Shown here: piece by piece, positions 46,020-54,986 of the stretch
How positions within the stretch are numbered: the first letter of the stretch is position 1
Layout of the letters: each line of letters begins with the position of its first letter
Origin: Candidatus Bathyarchaeota archaeon
Lineage (GTDB): Archaea; Thermoproteota; Bathyarchaeia; Bathyarchaeales; Bathycorpusculaceae
Assembly: GCA_963775685.1 (NCBI GenBank)
Contig: CAVZJV010000014.1
Span: 1,824,001-1,888,000, forward strand
DNA: 64,000 bases
Direction of reading: 5' to 3'
Translations under genes and position numbers: made by a program
The notes under the pieces: model-generated
What the model saw: only the letters and a program-made list of their open reading frames with translations
What the model was told of the DNA's origin: nothing
Databases searched by the model: none

Positions 46020-46766
46020 TCAGCGAGTTTTTATCGCCGCAATTATTTCAGAGATTCTTTGATTAGCATCGCTTGATTCAGTGATGTTTCCAGTTACGAT
46101 TATGTCTGCTCCAGCCGAAGCCGCAGTGAACGCCTGCTCTTTGGTCTTTATTCCGCCGCCAACAATGAGCGGAATGTCTATTAGATGCTTTACTGCCCGA
46201 ATCATTTCAGGAGGCACCGGGTTTGTTGCTCCGGAACCACCTTCAAGATAAATGAAGCGCATGCCGAGGTATTGACCTGCTAGAGCATGAGCAGCTGCAA
46301 GCTCAGGCTTATTGTACGGCAATGAAATAGCTTTTCCAACTATCCCAGCTGTTCCTCCATCGCCGACAATTATATAGCCCATAGCAATCGGTTCTAAACC
46401 GTATTTTTTTACAAGTGGAGCGCCCAAGATTTGGGCGCCTATCAGGAAATATGGATCAACCGAATTTAAAAGTGACATGAACCAAATTGCGTCTGCATGG
46501 CTACTTATTCCAGTTACGTTATTTGGGAAAAGAATTGTGGGAATGTCTACCTCGGATTTAATGGCTTTCACTATTTCATCCAAGTGATTCTCAGAAACAA
46601 ACGTTGAGCCCCCTATCATTATAGCGGCCGTTCCGCTATTCTTGGAGCTTTTAGCAATCCGCGACGCGGCCAAACCAGTTACTTTTTCTGGGTCTATTAG
46701 GGTTATGTGAATTGAGCCATCTGTTTTTATTTTTTCAAGCAAGTACCTTTCAATAGGCCCAGGCAT
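46020..46766 (-). CDS. Geranylgeranylglyceryl phosphate synthase
   Basis: LIDPEK, MIGGS, YLEGGSGA, VGGGI. Confidence 0.92.
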   Translation of the reverse strand: MPGPIERYLLEKIKTDGSIHITLIDPEKVTGLAASRIAKSSKNSGTAAIMIGGSTFVSENHLDEIVKAIKSEVDIPTILFPNNVTGISSHADAIWFMSLLNSVDPYFLIGAQILGAPLVKKYGLEPIAMGYIIVGDGGTAGIVGKAISLPYNKPELAAAHALAGQYLGMRFIYLEGGSGATNPVPPEMIRAVKHLIDIPLIVGGGIKTKEQAFTAASAGADIIVTGNITESSDANQRISEIIAAIKTR

Positions 46767-48002: not shown

Positions 48003-48836
48003 ATGAAGGATAAAATCAAACTTGCTTTGTGCCAAATAAGCAGTAAGCGGGAAGACAAAAACGAGAATCTGCGTAAAATTGAAGGCTTGACGTTAAAAGC
48101 TAAACAGAGGGGGGTAGACTTAGTGATTTTTCCCGAAATGTCACTTACAGGCTACGTGTTGCACGACCAAGTCTACGAGTTAGCAGAAACAATTCCTGGA
48201 CCCACAGTCCAAAAAGTTGAATTGTTAGCAAAGCAAACAGGGATGCACATCATTTTTGGAATGCCTGAACGAAGCGAGAAAACCCATGCAACAGTCTTTA
48301 ACACAGCGGTCTTTGTTGGTCCAAAAGGGCTAATCGGTAAGTACCGAAAGATGTATTTGCCGACTCATAGCGTGTTTGAAGAAAAAAGGTATTTTCGTCC
48401 AGGCTATAAGCCAGCCGCTTTTGAAACGGACTTAGGAAACATAGGTTTAAGCATTTGTTATGATGTTTTCTTTCCTGAAGTGTTTAGACTAACACGTCTT
48501 AAGGGTGCTCAATTAATAATTTGCATTTCTGCTTCTCCAGCTGTGCGAAGGGGGTACTTTGAAATTTTGACATCTGCTCGGGCACTAGAAAATACATCAT
48601 TTTTAGCCTACGTTAACCTTGCTGGTGTCGAAGAAGGCTTGCAATTTTGGGGAGGAAGCCGCCTCGTCTCTCCAACTGGGGATGTTGTAGCTAAGGCAAA
48701 GTACGATGAAGAAGACTTTGTTGTGGCTGAAGTCGATTACAGTGATTTAAAGACTGCTGAAACCTTCATTCCGACCTTAAGAGACCTGCGGCCTGAACTT
48801 TTCGCCAAACTGAAAGAGTATTCAGAGCGTCTGTAA
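48003..48836 (+). CDS. Carbon-nitrogen hydrolase (nitrilase superfamily)
   Basis: E-K-C triad: FPEM, YRKMYL, ICYD; ATG 48003 preferred. Confidence 0.9.
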   Translation: MKDKIKLALCQISSKREDKNENLRKIEGLTLKAKQRGVDLVIFPEMSLTGYVLHDQVYELAETIPGPTVQKVELLAKQTGMHIIFGMPERSEKTHATVFNTAVFVGPKGLIGKYRKMYLPTHSVFEEKRYFRPGYKPAAFETDLGNIGLSICYDVFFPEVFRLTRLKGAQLIICISASPAVRRGYFEILTSARALENTSFLAYVNLAGVEEGLQFWGGSRLVSPTGDVVAKAKYDEEDFVVAEVDYSDLKTAETFIPTLRDLRPELFAKLKEYSERL

Positions 48837-48838
48837 CA

Positions 48839-48973
48839 AATCACAACAAACTGCATTGCCATAGGTTGGTATCACAGATGAATCACAACCCTGTGATGCG
48901 AATGTTTAAACGTGAAAATCACATGATTTCTGCGCGATCGGTGACGTCACGGGTTTTTTCATACTAAGTCACA
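48839..48973. repeat. Cluster 1 of RTCAC/GTGAY motifs including GTGACGTCAC palindrome
   Basis: ATCACA at 48840, 48871, 48882 and 48918; TGTGAT 48892; GTGACGTCAC 48941-48950; GTCACA 48968. Confidence 0.75.
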
Positions 48974-49334
48974 TGTAAGATAGTCATGCAATAAAGTTCG
49001 CATTGCGAGAAGCACAGAAACTGTGTTTTGTTCGACATGAGTCCGAAAAAAAGGGAATAATTAGGGGAAGGTTCATTTGAAAAAGTGTATTTTTCATGTA
49101 AAGTTTAGCCTTAATTGGTTGATGAATAATCAAGATTTTTGTCGTTTTAATGTTAATCGACCACAAAACAACTCAAAACTGCCGAAAACACTTGTTTTAG
49201 CTTTATTTTACTTTTTAGGCATTATTTAGTCGCTTAATTATGCAAGATATGTGTTTTGGCGCTCGGACAAAAGTTAAAAAGTCGACAATGTCTACAAAAC
49301 TGTATCCATTCAAAGGATAGGGAGAAGCAACGAA

Positions 49335-49814
49335 ATGAAACTAAAAGACAGCGTACAAGCATGGTTAAACGGGGCTTTAAATGACCCAATTGTACAAATA
49401 CTGGCTAAAAACAGCCAATTAACTAAAACTCAGCTTGAAACATTCCTTATAGACGTTTTAGCCGAAAATATAGCGGGAAAACAGCTAAATTACGACAATA
49501 AAGCAGCTTTAAGGTTAACAAAGGCCAAAATAAGCCGCGGAAGTTTTAATAGGACTTTAAAACAGTCCAAAGAAAATGTCATAAAATCCATCTACACAGT
49601 ACTCCTTTTGGGATATTTAGGAGTATTTGAGAGCACAACTCTCGACCCCTATCTCGAAATAGCTAATAAACTGCACGATTATGTGGAGGCACACCAAGAT
49701 GTACCTAGCAAGGAAGAAGAACTAAAAGACCATCTAAAAGTTATAGAAATTATTCGAGAGGAGCTCGAAACAAGCTTAAAACGTCTTTCCAGCCCATCTG
49801 ACGGAACTCTGTGA
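49335..49814 (+). CDS. Uncharacterised protein with Tfx/sigma-r4-like HTH pattern
   Basis: LTKTQLE..ISRGSFNRTLKQSKENVIKS pattern; GGAGA upstream. Confidence 0.75.
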   Translation: MKLKDSVQAWLNGALNDPIVQILAKNSQLTKTQLETFLIDVLAENIAGKQLNYDNKAALRLTKAKISRGSFNRTLKQSKENVIKSIYTVLLLGYLGVFESTTLDPYLEIANKLHDYVEAHQDVPSKEEELKDHLKVIEIIREELETSLKRLSSPSDGTL

Positions 49815-50159
49815 CGTCACAAATCACAGATCAATCATCTTTCTTATTTAATTTAAATACCCTTTTAAAAACCCAACAATATACCTAAAATTATGGTTAA
49901 ATCAGCTAAATAGCTTCAAATTGGATTGATTTTAGTAGCAGCAATATAACCTAAAACCCAACAGAACGCATTTGTGATGCGTGATATCATATCGAATGAA
50001 TGTTAATATCACCGCAAACCTTAAAAAGTCCATGGAACAACTGTGATGTGTGATGCAACCAATCAAATCACGGGTAAATCACCGTTAAATCACAATCAAG
50101 GGGTGGCAAATCACGGTTGACATTGGAGCAATACTCGCAAGCATTTTACTTGTTGTGAC
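49810..50159. repeat. Cluster 2 of RTCAC/GTGAY motifs, with phased AAATCAC direct repeats
   Basis: TGTGACGTCACA 49810-49821; AATCACA 49822; TGTGAT 49973, 50042, 50049; GTGATATCAT 49981; AAATCAC at 50065, 50076, 50087, 50108. Confidence 0.8.
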
Positions 50160-50895
50160 AGCGGTAGCTTCTTTTGAGTATTATAATCAGATCCGAAAGG
50201 CGCATAAAGAGTACATTAAGGCGCGAGATTTTATTGAGGATATTGTACTAAGTTTCAATCGTGAACTTAAGCGCAATGCGGATAAGTTTGAATCTATTGC
50301 TTTTAAGGTTGAAGGAACCACGTCGAAGGCAGACGCAAGTCTAAAAATAATCAGTAATGTCGAGAAGCGTATAACACCCTTCGAAGAACAACTTGCGACA
50401 ATTAGTCAATCATATCAAACAATGTCTCAGATAGTCTCTCAAAACCTGACGGAGAACTCTCAAAATAGTACCAACATATTGTCTGGATTAACAGGTTTGG
50501 AAACAAAACTTAGAGACATTGAAGCAACCCAGGAAACTTTGCGAAACAAAATTACCGATTTTGAAGATCAAGTACAAAAGATAACGATTGTCCAACCTCA
50601 GGAAATTAAAACTCAAATGGCCCTACCACCTATTCCAATTAAACGCGACAAAGCATTGGCTGCACTAACAGACACAGAAATAGCAGTATTGGAAATGTTA
50701 TTAAAGGACGGTGCAAAGACGGCGCCTGAAATCAAAGAGATAGTCCATCTAAGCAGAGAGCACACAGCTAGGCTGATGAAAAAGCTATATGAAGAAGGAT
50801 ATCTTGAGCGAGAAGCAGGCAAAATTCCTTTTCAGTACAGTTTAAAGAAGGAAATGAAAACCTTACTTCAGAAAGCAGAAAACCCCTCTGCGTGA
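50110..50895 (+). CDS. Membrane-anchored coiled-coil protein with C-terminal winged-helix domain (start uncertain; first canonical start GTG 50155)
   Basis: Frame is open back to TAA 50086 and encodes IGAILASILLVVTAVASF (TM-like); long heptad-like middle; LTDTEIAVLEML..TAPEIKE..LSREHTARLMKKLYEEGYLER wHTH. Confidence 0.8.
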   Translation: MTVDIGAILASILLVVTAVASFEYYNQIRKAHKEYIKARDFIEDIVLSFNRELKRNADKFESIAFKVEGTTSKADASLKIISNVEKRITPFEEQLATISQSYQTMSQIVSQNLTENSQNSTNILSGLTGLETKLRDIEATQETLRNKITDFEDQVQKITIVQPQEIKTQMALPPIPIKRDKALAALTDTEIAVLEMLLKDGAKTAPEIKEIVHLSREHTARLMKKLYEEGYLEREAGKIPFQYSLKKEMKTLLQKAENPSA

Positions 50896-50943
50896 GAATA
50901 AATTAAATAGTTTTAGAGTAGCCGGTTATTGTGTTATTATTTT

Positions 50944-51375
50944 TTATTTTATGCGTTGCTTTATTGTGGCTTGGGAAATGTTTGGCGCTGACTTATATTT
51001 CAAGTTATTTTGCCCACCGGTTCGAAAAAGCATACCTTTGGCTGCCATTCTAGAAAGATAAGTGGAGACTGTGCTGAGGCAAACTGGTTCCTTGAGTTCT
51101 TGTTCATAAATAGACTGGATATCCTTGGAGGAAAACCAGATTAAGGGAAAATTCTTCTGGATAATTAATTGGACTTTCTCGAAACGTGATAGAGCCTTAT
51201 TAGGCATAACTGTGCTTGTATTCATAATCGGGCTCTCTCCAGGTGCACCTCCAAGCAATTCCACTAGATCCAAGAGGCGAAGAGCTTTATCCCGGGTCAC
51301 TTGACCCTCAAATGCAATGGTATATCGATTACCATCACTATCGAACAGCTCAACGCGCATTTTACGAGCCGGCAT
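50944..51375 (-). CDS. Origin-adjacent conserved hypothetical protein with C-terminal wHTH
   Basis: FSSKDIQSIYEQE..LSTVSTYLSRMAAKGMLFR; transcribed divergently from cdc6 across the origin. Confidence 0.8.
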   Translation of the reverse strand: MPARKMRVELFDSDGNRYTIAFEGQVTRDKALRLLDLVELLGGAPGESPIMNTSTVMPNKALSRFEKVQLIIQKNFPLIWFSSKDIQSIYEQELKEPVCLSTVSTYLSRMAAKGMLFRTGGQNNLKYKSAPNISQATIKQRIK

Positions 51376-51568
51376 CGGGAGTACACCTTAAGGTTGCTCA
51401 CATTTACACTTCACACCTTAAAGCTGTTATGGTGAAATGAAGTAACTGAAAAAGGCAATGTAATGCTCATATTTTATAAATCAGACTTTTTTGAAGTGTT
51501 TTCGCTATTACCAGCTTCACAGATAAATGAATAACCAGAAAACTTTGTGTTAAGCCTTGGTTCATGTT

Positions 51569-51589
51569 TTCCAGTAGAAGTGAAGGGGT
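51569..51589 (+). promoter_or_regulatory. Origin recognition box ORB1
   Basis: TTCCAGTAGAAGTGAAGGGGT matches the archaeal ORB consensus with G-string. Confidence 0.85.
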
Positions 51590-51828
51590 GGCTTATTCAC
51601 TTGTGAAAGACAGAAAAATGGTAATTTATAGGAAAATGAGCTCATTAATGCGGCAGAAATATTGATATTTCATATGAATTCACAATTTTGTGAACTTAAA
51701 AAGGCCGGGAATTTGAAAATAAACACTTTTGGTTTGCTTGGAGTAAATTGTTGATAGTTTATGGTTAAGTGAAGCAACTTGTCACTTCTAATTCAACGTT
51801 ATGACATGGAAAAGCTTTGTTGAGGGAC

Positions 51829-51849
51829 ACCCCTATGTTTCCTCTCGAA
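51829..51849 (-). promoter_or_regulatory. Origin recognition box ORB2 (inverted)
   Basis: Reverse complement is TTCGAGAGGAAACATAGGGGT. Confidence 0.85.
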
Positions 51850-51919
51850 GTTTTTGGGACAAAAGAAGTTAGGAAAGCTCGAAAAAATATTTACAGACAG
51901 ATTGTCTAAAATGTTTGAT

Positions 51920-52011
51920 GATAATCATTAATATATAAAAATGCGTTTTATCACTCAGAGTATATTATTATATATATTATAATTAGTAGTTTCCTTATAA
52001 TAAACTATATT
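51920..52011. other. AT-rich duplex unwinding element of oriC
   Basis: Very AT-rich run (tatattattatatatattataatt) between inverted ORBs. Confidence 0.75.
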
Positions 52012-52032
52012 CTCCAGTAGAAACTTTGGTGT
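52012..52032 (+). promoter_or_regulatory. Origin recognition box ORB3
   Basis: CTCCAGTAGAAACTTTGGTGT. Confidence 0.75.
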
Positions 52033-52132
52033 GTGTCTTCTCTTGGTTTGTTTGACCACTATCGCCTATTTTCTTTGTTTTTTAGGATTGTTGTGGTCTA
52101 AAACTAGTTTTTTGTACTGTATCCTTTATCTG

Positions 52133-52153
52133 TTCCACAAGAAATAACGGTTG
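52133..52153 (+). promoter_or_regulatory. Degenerate/mini-ORB near the cdc6 start
   Basis: TTCCACAAGAAATAACGGTTG, 28 nt upstream of the cdc6 ATG. Confidence 0.55.
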
Positions 52154-52180
52154 TACCTGTCAAGATTGATGTGATGACGA

Positions 52181-53428
52181 ATGGGGAATCCGAGTGTACT
52201 AGATGATGTATTTGACAACTTCGTTAATGGTGCTCGATTGTTTAAAGACCGAGAAGTTTTAAGGCATGATTATCTTCCTGAGAAGTTGCCACATCGTGAA
52301 GACCAAATACGATTATTAGGTTCAACTGTTGCTCCAGTTTTGAGAGATTCAAGGTGCTCTAACATTTTTATTTATGGCAAAACTGGAACCGGAAAGACTG
52401 CAGTAACAAAGTATGTTTTAAGCCATTTGGAGTCCAAAGCAAAAGAGTATGGTGCACAAGTAAAATTTTGCTACATCAACTGCCGCATGACTGGTTCAGA
52501 GTACAGAGTGTTTGCAAGCCTAAGCCAAAGTGTTGGGTTATCCGTCCCTTTTACTGGGTTGTCAGTGGGTGAGGTTTTTGACAGGTTTAGAACGGGGTTA
52601 GATTCCTCAAGGATAATTTTCATAATTGTCTTAGATGAGGTTGATGCCTTGATTAAAGAGCGTGGCGACGCGTTCATGTATGAACTAACAAGAATAAACG
52701 AAACCTTAAGCAAAAGCAAGGTTGCTATAATCGGAATATCCAACGATCTGCGTCTAAAAGAATTCCTAGATCCGCGAGTCTTCAGTTCACTTAGCGAAGA
52801 AGAGCTGGTCTTTAGACCATACGATGCAGGAGAACTCCGAAATATACTTTTAGAAAGGTCAAAATTGTCCTTCCAAGAAGGTGTTTTATCCGATTCAGCC
52901 CTTAGCATTTGCTCGGCTTTGGCTGCAGCTGAACATGGGGATGCTAGGCGTGCTCTAGATTTGTTACGTGTTGCTGGAGAAGTGGCTGAGCGTGCAGGTG
53001 CAAAAATGATTACAGAAGAGCACGTGCGTCAGGCAGAGAAACACATTGAGCATAATCGTGTAGTTGAAGCCCTCAACAACTTAACGTTGCATTCAAAGTT
53101 GGTGCTGCTGAGTGTTTATCATCTAAACAAGTCAAGCCCTACTACCGGAGAAATTTACGATGTATACAATGAATTGTGCGGCGAAATGGGTGCTGGGCTT
53201 TTAACTCAAAGACGTTTAGGCACTTTGGTTAATGAGTTGGATTCAATGGGACTTGTGAACGCAAAAGTTGTAAGCATGGGACGTTATGGTAGAACCAAGA
53301 AAATAAGGCTCGATATTTCCCGAAGTTTGATCAGGGATGTCTTTGGTAGCGACAACCGCTTTAGCCGCTTGATTGAGTACTCACCTCAAGTTTCCCGTAA
53401 AAACTTAAAAAGCCATCCTAATCCGTGA
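52181..53428 (+). CDS. cdc6: Orc1/Cdc6 replication initiator
   Basis: LPHREDQI, YGKTGTGKT, VLDEVD, HGDARRALDLLR, GRYGRT wing. Confidence 0.97.
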   Translation: MGNPSVLDDVFDNFVNGARLFKDREVLRHDYLPEKLPHREDQIRLLGSTVAPVLRDSRCSNIFIYGKTGTGKTAVTKYVLSHLESKAKEYGAQVKFCYINCRMTGSEYRVFASLSQSVGLSVPFTGLSVGEVFDRFRTGLDSSRIIFIIVLDEVDALIKERGDAFMYELTRINETLSKSKVAIIGISNDLRLKEFLDPRVFSSLSEEELVFRPYDAGELRNILLERSKLSFQEGVLSDSALSICSALAAAEHGDARRALDLLRVAGEVAERAGAKMITEEHVRQAEKHIEHNRVVEALNNLTLHSKLVLLSVYHLNKSSPTTGEIYDVYNELCGEMGAGLLTQRRLGTLVNELDSMGLVNAKVVSMGRYGRTKKIRLDISRSLIRDVFGSDNRFSRLIEYSPQVSRKNLKSHPNP

Positions 53429-54986
53429 AGGACAATACGGTAGTGTGCAATGTTTGCAGGTTAACCACTGGCACTTTACCGGGTGTCGGAACCAACCCTA
53501 ATTTTTCCATGTAATCGGTCTGGTCTTGCCAACCGCCCGAATTAACAACTAACACTCCGCGGTAATTGCAGTATCCTATTACGTGTATGTGACCTGCATG
53601 GAAAATATCTGGAACTCTGTCTACAACAAGGTAGTCTCTGTTTTCTGGGGACAGCATGGTTTTTCCGCCATAAACAGGTGCTAAATGGCGGCCTTGCATA
53701 AGCAAGCGCATTGCTTTTTCAGGGTGATCATGGTCCATTCCAGGTATGACCGCGATTATATCGTCTAAACTGCGACCATGATACATAAGGATCTCTACGC
53801 CATGAAGGCTTAGCAGGCATGGGCTTCCGACGGAGTGAATGTTCTTTTTCCCTTTGATGCCTGTCAAGTAACCTTCTGGGATAGCTGGCTGGGGTAGTGA
53901 TTTGCGTGCGGCATCGTGGTTGCCTGGCGAGAGAAAGATTTCAATGTAATTTGGGATTTTTTCAAGGTATTTGGCTGCGAAGTCATATTGTTTGTGTACG
54001 TCACGTATGGTTAGTTCGTTTTGCTGGCCAGGGTAGATTCCCACCCCGTCAACGATGTCTCCGGCGACTAAGAGATACTTTACTCGACTAGCAATTTCCT
54101 TCATCTCGGGCGTTCCGTATTTGCCTTTAAGCCATAGTATGAAACGTTTGAATGATTCTTTGGTAAATTTTGTGCTGCCGATATGTATGTCGGATGTAAG
54201 GACTGCGTAAATTGGTTCTTGAGCTCTCTGCTGCTGTTTTCTTCCTATTTCAGGAAAGATAATGTCTTCTGCCATGAAAAGATTAGTTCGCGTCTTGATT
54301 ACAGCTAGACAGACTACTTGGTCGGGCAGAAGCATGAGGGTTTTCTTCTTGACTTCCTCGGGGACGTTTTGAGATACAAGTACCGTTGCGTTTCCTTGTA
54401 AGTCTTCAACTGAAAGTATAGTGTGGTTTTTTGAATCTCGCTTCTCAGTAATCATGCAAATAATTTTTAGTTTAGTTTTCGCAGGCGATTTTAGAGCTTC
54501 CAGAATTGGGGTTGCAGCTTTAACATCCATTCTCTGCCTAAGAAGATGTTCGATACGTTTGAAGCGGTCTTGAAAGTAAAGCACATATTCATTTAGTGTT
54601 CCGTTTGAGCTTAGTTTACCTGTAGCGTCTTCTATGATTTTGATATCTGACGGTATGTCTTTTGCGTATGGATAAAATTCGGTTTCATCACTGCTCAGCT
54701 CTTGTGTTATCCCAGGTTCTGGGGTTGTTTGTGGCTCCAATATTGGTATTTCGGGTATCGTTCTTTCAGGTACCGACTGCAATAATTTTTCCAAAAAACC
54801 TTTTTCGATGAACATCGGCTTGTCTTCAAGTTCTCCAATTCGTTTAAATGCTAACTGCATAATTGTGCCCGGATCATTTGCTTCACAGTTTTGGCACAGG
54901 TACTCAAAGGCTTCGCTGTTTAGCTGGTAGCCTGCAGCTATTGTCGCCTGAATTGCTCTTTGAAGTTTATCTCTTGAGCTCATCAA
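53418..54986 (-). CDS. polB: DNA polymerase D small (exonuclease) subunit DP1
   Basis: OB fold, SDIHIGS, AGDIVDGVGIYPGQ, PGNHD, HAGHIH. Confidence 0.95.
   Translation of the reverse strand: MMSSRDKLQRAIQATIAAGYQLNSEAFEYLCQNCEANDPGTIMQLAFKRIGELEDKPMFIEKGFLEKLLQSVPERTIPEIPILEPQTTPEPGITQELSSDETEFYPYAKDIPSDIKIIEDATGKLSSNGTLNEYVLYFQDRFKRIEHLLRQRMDVKAATPILEALKSPAKTKLKIICMITEKRDSKNHTILSVEDLQGNATVLVSQNVPEEVKKKTLMLLPDQVVCLAVIKTRTNLFMAEDIIFPEIGRKQQQRAQEPIYAVLTSDIHIGSTKFTKESFKRFILWLKGKYGTPEMKEIASRVKYLLVAGDIVDGVGIYPGQQNELTIRDVHKQYDFAAKYLEKIPNYIEIFLSPGNHDAARKSLPQPAIPEGYLTGIKGKKNIHSVGSPCLLSLHGVEILMYHGRSLDDIIAVIPGMDHDHPEKAMRLLMQGRHLAPVYGGKTMLSPENRDYLVVDRVPDIFHAGHIHVIGYCNYRGVLVVNSGGWQDQTDYMEKLGLVPTPGKVPVVNLQTLHTTVLSFTD

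Follow-up and report, generated by a model that had tools for sequence, protein, structure and literature searches.

What function is served by two dense arrays of a short DNA motif that lie, together with three uncharacterized genes, beside the gene for a replication initiator? The question is raised by a locus within a 64,000-nucleotide (nt) stretch of an archaeal genome (3.06 Mb in 14 contigs), here called the window (G000:C14:1824001-1888000), whose close protein relatives carry the labels Candidatus Bathyarchaeota or Bathyarchaeia. The motif is RTCAC (R, purine); the genes, p1, p2, and p3, precede a putative origin of replication (oriC) and a cdc6 gene. An initial annotation of this DNA had suggested that a winged helix-turn-helix (wHTH) protein binds the arrays and that a second, transmembrane (TM) protein anchors the origin region to the membrane. 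The reading favored here, to which we assign a probability of about 45%, is that p2 would perform both tasks: dimers of p2 would bind the arrays, coat the promoter of their own gene, and thereby hold DNA lying 0.4-3.9 kb from oriC at the membrane.

The three genes are real open reading frames (ORFs) that, as first described, are uncharacterized. Each is present in a single copy in the genome, and each has more than 3,000 homologue clusters, mostly from Bathyarchaeota, whose only names are "hypothetical" or "MarR family". No description of these genes was found in open-access text, supplements aside. The features that carry the argument are as follows (position, strand where one applies, and identity).

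48839-48975: array A, with five ATCAC/GTGAT and three GTCAC/GTGAC half-sites, including the palindrome GTGACGTCAC at 48941-48950
49335-49814, forward strand: p1, 159 amino acids (aa), all-helical, without a Pfam family
49811-49820: palindrome GTGACGTCAC, which holds the TGA stop codon of p1
49811-50114: array B, from the palindrome at the p1 stop to the start codon of p2
50100-50106, forward strand: Shine-Dalgarno-like GGGGTGG, 6 nt 5' of ACG 50113
50113-50895, forward strand: p2, 260 aa with the ACG 50113 start; first canonical start at 50155
50944-51375, reverse strand: p3, 143 aa, divergent from cdc6 across the putative origin
51376-52180: putative oriC spacer, 805 bp, with an AT-rich stretch, TCCAGTAGAA repeats, and an element like an origin recognition box (ORB)
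52181-53428, forward strand: Orc1/Cdc6 initiator, with AAA+, Cdc6 lid, and Cdc6_C winged-helix domains (Pfam)

The RTCAC arrays and the protein that accompanies them

ATCAC/GTGAT sites number five between 48830 and 48980 and ten between 49800 and 50130, compared to a background density of 1.24 per kb in the remainder of the window. Over the whole genome, which contains 3,937 such sites (1.29 per kb), the two arrays are the two densest 200-bp windows, with 9 and 6 sites compared to 5 and 4 in the next two, and a ranking by RTCACR agrees, since the arrays again occupy the top two places with 7 sites each and the next window has 4. The motif is clustered far beyond chance, and the two dense clusters initially pointed out are thus the top two of the genome. 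Outside the locus, GTGAYRTCAC palindromes occur at chance frequency (8 versus about 10.6 expected), as do paired sites at every spacing; a wider regulon in the window's genome was considered on this basis and rejected. The arrays lie 1.3-3.3 kb from the putative oriC, nothing comparable is present elsewhere in the genome, and the origin spacer itself contains merely scattered single RTCAC sites.

The half-sites fall into three arrangements: 10-bp palindromes of the form GTGAYRTCAC, here GTGACGTCAC, at 48941 and 49811; 7-bp tandem pairs, GTGATGCGTGAT (box I, 49974-49985) and GTGATGTGTGAT (box II, 50043-50054); and direct repeats in 11-bp steps (50067, 50078, and 50089; 48871, 48882, and 48893). 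Array A is located directly 3' of a nitrilase stop codon and about 370 bp 5' of p1. Array B continues from the palindrome and box I through an ATCAC at 50008 to the A/T-rich CTTAAAAAG (50020-50028), a putative TATA box 93 nt 5' of the p2 start codon, and then to box II, which coincides with the putative transcription start region. It ends in four direct AATCAC repeats (50066-50114, in steps of 11, 11, and 21 bp), the last of which overlaps the start codon. Sites therefore flank CTTAAAAAG and continue up to the start codon, and the anatomy, as read from the sequence, would be that of strong autorepression.

Within the genus, the layout of array B is fixed in all 24 loci compared: a double box, an ATCAC beside the A/T-rich CTTAAAAAG, and a second double box. 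The two GTGAYnnGTGAY boxes are 67-70 bp apart in every one of these loci, with the second about 23 nt after the A/T box, and three to six direct repeats run into the p2 start codon, so that at least two RTCAC are present in the last 60 nt. The A/T-rich box can be recognized by eye; a strict TATA search pattern matched at the expected place in only 9/24. Columns belonging to the motif are 92% identical to the window versus 45% for the other columns of the spacer, and none of 2,000 random block sets reached the conservation of the motif columns; within the genus, the motifs are under purifying selection. The conserved unit extends to A-M-ATCAC-R (217 sites in the 24 loci), with a purine at position +5 in 95% of these sites versus 41% of the background. 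Array A is kept as well, with five to nine ATCAC in 23 of the 24 loci and three in L024, whose flank is truncated; outside the genus it is present in one of six loci from other families of the order. Across the order, the spacer between p1 and p2 contains 7-13 ATCAC in 29/30 loci, and a palindrome overlaps the p1 stop codon in 22 of the 30.

At a greater distance, 20 loci on long contigs from other families of Bathyarchaeia, centered on p1, reveal which gene the arrays follow. Here sites were counted at the p1 stop and the p2 start rather than by the densest window; in L073, L074, L079, L089, and L090, the densest ATCAC windows fall inside the nadE (L073 and L079) or hypF coding sequence and mimic an array. 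The 12 loci that contain p2 have 3-11 ATCAC (3-16 RTCAC) within 400 bp 3' of the p1 stop, and each has a palindrome at or within 60 nt of that stop (ten perfect, two imperfect). In contrast, seven of the eight loci without p2 have 0-1 ATCAC, though all seven keep p1, p3, and cdc6; the loci are kin and not independent, with the losses falling in about five or six families. A profile search of the eight p2-less genomes did not find p2 elsewhere and returned only coiled-coil noise (E about 1e-4). Because it is p2, rather than p1 or p3, with which the arrays co-vary, a single protein most likely serves as both binder and anchor. The wHTH protein that the arrays track is the TM protein itself and not the separate partner initially proposed. 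Given its invariant recognition helix (described below), the invariant motif in both classes in which the locus occurs, and this co-occurrence, p2 is the best candidate for the binder of the RTCAC motif, and we consider this assignment probable.

It could be argued that the arrays are instead bound by p1, p3, or Orc1/Cdc6, or that they are auxiliary elements of the origin, with p2 a mere neighbor. DNA binding is probable for p1 and p3 as well, both of which are strongly conserved and adjacent, and no more than about 2 kb separates the arrays from the ORB-bearing spacer. However, the near absence of sites from p2-less loci that keep all three of the other genes, the scattered single RTCAC sites in the origin spacer, and the lack of resemblance between the motif and ORB-like TTCCA..GAAA elements make this explanation quite improbable.

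Probable start codon, predicted anchor, and winged helix of p2

The architecture first ascribed to one product of the locus, an N-terminal TM helix followed by a long coiled coil and a C-terminal wHTH, is correct for p2 only if translation starts upstream of GTG 50155, because the hydrophobic helix lies 5' of this first canonical start; it is obtained with a start at ACG 50113 and lost from GTG 50155. No in-frame ATG, GTG, or TTG is present between the stop codon at 50086-50088 and GTG 50155. A comparison of the start slot in 56 distinct loci (after three duplicates and one p2-less locus were dropped; the slot is unaligned in the most distant loci) reveals ACG in 21 genus loci, 5-8 nt after a GGAGG-like purine-rich stretch, ATG in L020 and L059, and GTG or TTG in sister genera, while the preceding codon varies among loci. 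Orthologues that start with ATG, GTG, or TTG encode M-x-D/E and then the full hydrophobic helix. From this pattern, p2 appears to start at the non-canonical ACG 50113. The ACG start can be seen at 50100-50115 of the window and among L002-L024, L055, L065, and L067. Public gene calls place the p2 start at a later GTG or TTG within the helix, so that the annotated proteins are without the membrane anchor (P0014, P0040, P0069, and P0102).

The predicted anchor comprises residues ~2-21 (nt 50116-50175) and is followed by a K/R-rich juxtamembrane segment. It is conserved: 21 of 22 full-length orthologues have, at the extreme N-terminus, a 19-residue window with a Kyte-Doolittle mean of at least 1.98, and then 3-6 K/R in the next 15 residues. 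This composition predicts an N-terminal anchor, with the remainder of p2 being cytoplasmic and next to no residues exposed outside. The coiled coil is about 130 aa in length, and searches of Pfam, NCBIfam, and the Protein Data Bank (PDB) with the middle region match generic coiled coils only.

The winged helix is encoded by nt ~50665-50841 (Pfam match to residues 171-229 of the 246-aa form) and scores above the Pfam cut-offs for both TrmB (PF01978, 29.6 bits, cut-off 25.6) and MarR (PF01047, 26.9 bits, cut-off 24.6). Within it, the recognition-helix segment REHxAR..K.L...G...R is invariant in 26 p2 sequences from Bathyarchaeia whose overall identity falls as low as 22%, and the counterpart in the Nitrosopumilus p2 ORFs inspected is SREHT(A/S)RL(L/M)KKLF. 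Beyond the wHTH domain, Pfam, NCBIfam, and PDB profile searches place p2 in no characterized regulator family; this result and the conserved anchor speak against the alternative, raised at the outset, of a soluble protein or a known, unrelated regulator.

Variant forms of p2 are present in the phylum (L098 7860-8492, L099 8003-8725, L100 7865-8314, and L104 7956-8411). One type is without the membrane helix and adjoins p3; the other, of about 150 aa, has the anchor and the winged helix but hardly any coiled coil, and its gene overlaps the 3' end of p1.

Possible origin anchoring or autoregulation, and the history of the locus

The spacer at 51376-52180 is a plausible oriC, judging from three features: a stretch of 19% GC at ~51900-52000, the TCCAGTAGAA repeat pair (51564-51579 and 52007-52022), and the ORB-like TTTATCTGTTCCACAAGAAATAACGG (~52125-52150) ahead of cdc6, which by eye is alike in all 18 genus loci that reach cdc6. 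A second Orc1/Cdc6 paralogue, with 29% identity, is encoded on the same contig at G000:C14:1156555-1157676, outside the window. An Rfam scan of 48700-52300 gave no match at E up to 1. Among sequencing runs, four soil-metagenome DNA runs of one study contain small shares, and no RNA run was listed for the locus.

In the proposed mechanism, p2 would be a single-pass protein with an N-terminal anchor and few residues outside, its coiled coil and MarR/TrmB-type winged helix residing in the cytoplasm. It would dimerize through the coiled coil and bind RTCAC half-sites, a dimer of this kind being well suited to the palindromes, and the 10-11-bp phasing suggests that binding would be cooperative on one face of the DNA helix. 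Through repression by the occupied array, the amount of p2 would be matched to the number of sites, and the weak ACG start would add damping and lower p2 output further. Since p2 is predicted to be fixed in the membrane and the only dense clusters of sites in the genome are near oriC, binding by p2 would hold that stretch of the chromosome at the membrane. The selected function would then be anchoring of the origin region, serving either origin positioning and segregation or access of the initiator.

The same anatomy can be viewed as that of a purely transcriptional circuit, in which p2 is a membrane-tethered autorepressor that sets only the levels of p2 and p1, with p1 as a downstream regulator. 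p2 might then be released or inactivated by a membrane signal or by proteolysis, and the closeness to oriC would be inherited or would reflect gene dosage or timing. The binding step is common to the anchoring and the regulatory readings, and what differs is the target of selection. Such a circuit is suggested by the sites that cover the A/T-rich box, putative transcription start, leader, and start codon of p2, by the palindrome on the p1 stop codon, and by a wHTH of the MarR/TrmB/Lrs14 regulator type. Four observations, however, point beyond regulation: the protein is predicted to be fixed in the membrane by an anchor without a sensor domain and with few residues beyond the membrane; the genome has no other clusters for p2 to act on; the ten to twenty half-sites and the second array, which lies 1 kb upstream and off any recognizable promoter, exceed what autoregulation would need; and sites persist at the 3' end of p1 where the p2 promoter has lost them. 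The last point comes from four loci (L074, L089, L090, and L088) in which hypF or about 7 kb is inserted between p1 and p2. Whereas the p2 promoter in these loci has 0-1 motifs, the 3' end of p1 retains the palindrome and additional sites, which argues that these are kept for something besides control of the p2 promoter. We hold a purely transcriptional role to be somewhat improbable, but only slightly less likely than origin anchoring. Even if the locus is regulatory only, it would offer a sensor-less, membrane-anchored MarR-type protein, an operator field that is unique in its genome, and an ACG start in 21 loci, all of which would be new. The insert in the loci just named is a 774-aa HypF-like gene (L074 10191-12515, L089 7354-9675, and L088 4068-6392) or about 7 kb that includes one.

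Several further observations weigh against origin anchoring. Because the main array blankets the promoter region, leader, and start codon of p2, plain autoregulation would account for much of what is seen. The sites occupy a 1.3-kb patch, whereas those of known tethers extend across hundreds of kb. The cumulative GC skew over the contig has no clear minimum at the putative oriC. The co-occurrence of arrays and p2 is partly built in, since most sites are in p2's own upstream region, and one locus, L072, which comes from a genome of 86% completeness and has masked bases close by, contains sites and no detectable p2. Some relatives of p2 are without the anchor (L098 and L099). In family f24, whose only Orc1/Cdc6 is a 30-33% paralogue encoded elsewhere, p1, p2, and the sites persist beside the gene for DP1, the small subunit of PolD, where neither the window-type cdc6 nor p3 was found; the sites thus do not require linkage to a working origin, which also favors the circuit. 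Finally, the whole block, including an unrelated gene similar to that for geranylgeranylglyceryl phosphate (GGGP) synthase, is syntenic between two classes. This shared synteny, a second point in the circuit's favor, indicates that closeness to cdc6 may simply be inherited gene order, so that synteny by itself is weak evidence.

How far this gene order extends was seen from relatives. Within the order, p2 is present in 35 of 41 genomes, p1 precedes it in 30/30 loci fetched, and in most genus loci p3 and the cdc6 start follow within the 1.5-kb flank. Among other families of the order, 11 loci with 10-kb flanks are ordered p1, p2, p3, cdc6, DP1, phoU. A p1 profile detects 169 of 201 genomes of the class (115 of the 126 high-quality ones), and a p2 profile detects 55 of 81 high-quality genomes of the phylum at E up to 1e-6. 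Wherever p2 and the window-type cdc6 co-occur, they are 0.4-3.9 kb apart. Nitrosopumilus has the identical order of GGGP-synthase-like gene, p1, p2, p3, cdc6, and DP1. In 66 of its loci (68 were fetched and two with a cut p2 were dropped), the 330 bp around the p2 start contain 7-14 ATCAC/GTGAT (median 11) versus 0.84 expected from the flanks, and p2 is accompanied by p1 in 65, p3 in 59, and cdc6 in 57, the shortfalls being taken to be contig ends. A single origin has been mapped in N. maritimus, according to a review (PMC4010727). The comparison of cdc6 neighborhoods that had been called for thus finds the genes and arrays co-conserved across Bathyarchaeia and in Nitrosopumilus, so that a concrete pair of protein and sites beside an initiator gene is kept between these groups, the latter of which includes cultured ammonia oxidizers. 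In the most far-reaching reading, which we regard as unlikely, the locus would be an ancient origin-anchoring system, predating the split of Bathyarchaeia and Nitrososphaeria, in which p2 with its arrays, along with p3 and p1, would position origins or gate initiation in lineages without a ParA-type partner at the locus. Only in that case would it represent a direct, testable archaeal version of the membrane attachment site of the replicon model.

The distribution of the genes also bears on whether the locus is what remains of an integrated plasmid or viral replicon that had iterons and a Rep-like winged-helix protein. Phased short repeats beside wHTH genes do look iteron-like, and one homologue is labeled "prophage DNA circulation protein" by one source. 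Yet p1 and p2 are single-copy core genes (the frequencies given above), always in the same chromosomal place; PHROGs gives no match for p1 or p3 and weak wHTH matches for p2; and Pfam identifies no integrase or Rep domain. A relic of this type is extremely improbable.

In six of the 11 loci from other families (L032, L033, L034, L036, L039, and L040), about 2.6 kb separates p2 from p3. In L032 (7099-9631, genome G030), this interval contains a 333-aa gene without a Pfam family and a 519-aa HerA-like ATPase (DUF87, E 1.4e-7), neither of which is present in the window's genome; an ATPase of the DNA-translocase type between p2 and p3 could bear on segregation. In Nitrosopumilus, paired sites and palindromes outside the locus are scattered, at 20-32 per genome versus 5-16 for controls (five genomes). 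A conserved element, ATCACTAGTGATATCACTAGTGAT, overlaps the start of a PadR-like regulator (L174 2475-2505 in G239; also G246, G267, and G281), whose gene is divergent from that for the succinate dehydrogenase flavoprotein. The half-site is the same and the arrangement differs; ATCACTAGTGATATCACTAGTGAT may be either a second target of p2 or the PadR-like regulator's own operator.

The three genes were initially grouped as one module. They are indeed neighbors in a conserved order, but their phyletic patterns differ, and they form neither an obligate nor an indivisible module. p3, which is present in 12 of the 20 distant loci, is always the divergent neighbor of cdc6 (12/12) and was not found in any of the five f24 genomes without the window-type cdc6. 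Four genomes of the f24 type (G171, G162, G197, and G142) keep only the second Orc1/Cdc6 paralogue, with the window-type cdc6 and p3 apparently lost. The locus therefore combines three units that differ in history: p1, which is class-wide; p3, which goes with the cdc6 type and the origin; and p2, which goes with the RTCAC sites.

A helix-turn-helix (HTH) had been seen in all three products. It is upheld for p2 by the Pfam cut-offs and for p3 by structure prediction, and is weakly supported for p1. The p1 model is all-helical (predicted local distance difference test score, pLDDT, 89.9) with a C-terminal helical hairpin, and a VIA match of residues 26-100 to a LuxR-type domain (Z 6.2, root-mean-square deviation 2.8, 64 residues) weakly hints at a possible LuxR/sigma-r4-like HTH; Z values of this size are common for helical models, and the VIA matches are mostly to generic helical hairpins. 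p1 has no Pfam, NCBIfam, or PHROG family; no PDB entry was matched by Foldseek at E up to 1e-3 or by a profile search at E below 0.1, and the ESM Atlas contains "hypothetical" clusters only. p3 is predicted by AlphaFold2 (pLDDT 73) to consist of an N-terminal beta-hairpin and helix domain, a disordered linker, and a C-terminal winged helix, for which Foldseek returns MecI, BlaI, and Fur (E 4e-3, probability 1.0). The best PDB profile match of p3 has an E of 0.076, and its ESM Atlas matches are hypothetical clusters only. Identity within the genus is about 90% for p1 and 85% for p3.

The remaining features around the locus are as follows.

46020-46766: GGGP-synthase-like gene (archaeal lipid synthesis), identified by eye
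Between this gene and array A: a nadE-like gene, identified by eye, and then a nitrilase gene (CN_hydrolase, Pfam)
49270-49310, forward strand: probable promoter and leader of p1, with an A/T-rich box at 49270-49279 and the conserved element GTMTACAAAACTGTATCCATT at 49290-49310
53418-54986, reverse strand: small subunit of PolD (DP1)

The GGGP-synthase-like gene adjoins p1 here and in Nitrosopumilus (L092-L097 and L102); since it is common to both blocks, the conserved block on this side of the origin comprises at least six genes. The promoter and leader of p1 (49270-49310) contain no ATCAC motif. GTMTACAAAACTGTATCCATT is conserved upstream of p1, with GTATCC within 60 nt of p1 in 22 of the 24 genus loci and conserved columns in 23. 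It has no RTCAC site, and some other regulator, perhaps p1 or p3, may use it as an operator. A sequence common to the regions upstream of p1 and cdc6, ACTGTATCC, was considered and attributed to chance, as GTATCC precedes cdc6 in just 3 of 18 genus loci. Between array A and p1, an AT-rich stretch that is conserved in patches has no sign of a gene.

Comparison with known systems

Palindromic operators within their own promoters are typical of the MarR, TrmB, and Lrs14 families. These regulators are small soluble dimers, whereas p2 has a predicted anchor, followed by a coiled coil of about 130 residues, and is without the MarR dimerization and ligand helices. A canonical MarR regulator is soluble and about 140-160 aa in length, its dimer being built by helices at both termini around the wHTH; in p2 the match covers 51-59 C-terminal residues, with a predicted membrane helix and a coiled coil making up the rest. 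p2 also scores well below the cut-offs for Lrs14 (NF040939, 27.5 bits, cut-off 90) and Sta1 (NF053606, 24.4 bits, cut-off 80).

Membrane-bound transcription factors are represented by ToxR and CadC in bacteria and by ArnR in Sulfolobus; in these proteins, the DNA-binding domain is N-terminal, and a sensor or extra helices are present beyond the membrane. p2 resembles them in that its DNA-binding domain would be tethered by a predicted TM helix, and differs in having almost nothing outside the membrane and no evident regulon.

With ParB/parS and Sulfolobus SegAB, the locus shares repeated sites near an origin, here a putative one, and a gene for a probable DNA-binding protein beside the sites. 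It differs in that a membrane anchor would stand in place of the ATPase partner: as initially reported, no ParA/SegA ATPase gene is present, since the eight AAA_31 (PF13614) matches in the genome are all outside the window and none is found among the ORFs at 46-56 kb. Pfam identifies no ParB-type domain in p1, p2, or p3, and a SegB reference was not among the sequences compared. For archaeal chromosome segregation in general, a 2024 review, in the portion available, names only SegA/SegB, with a mechanism described as not understood (PMC7617429).

The combination of a DNA-binding domain, a coiled coil, and membrane attachment in one protein, with sites near the origin, is what p2, as predicted, has in common with RicO and RacA. 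RacA, which acts at the ram sites of Bacillus subtilis, follows a logic similar to that of RicO and is attached through contact with DivIVA. RicO of Staphylococcus aureus combines a DNA-binding domain with a coiled coil and a membrane-binding helix, and it anchors origins through nine origin-proximal sites (ricS) distributed over about 700 kb, as described in a preprint (bioRxiv 10.64898/2026.03.06.710092). The confinement of RTCAC arrays to the neighborhood of the putative origin parallels the placement of sites in tethers of this type. Unlike RicO and RacA, p2 has its anchor first, so that the order of domains is reversed, and its anchor is predicted to be a true TM helix rather than an amphipathic helix or a contact with DivIVA. 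Its sites also differ from those of RicO: instead of being dispersed over hundreds of kb, they are packed into about 1.3 kb (48839-50114) on p2's own gene. RicO and RacA were absent from the matches to p2 in Pfam, NCBIfam, and PDB profile searches, with no direct comparison made with either protein. RicO is thus best regarded as the closest analogue of p2, similar in presumed function and not by homology, with p2 being an archaeal protein.

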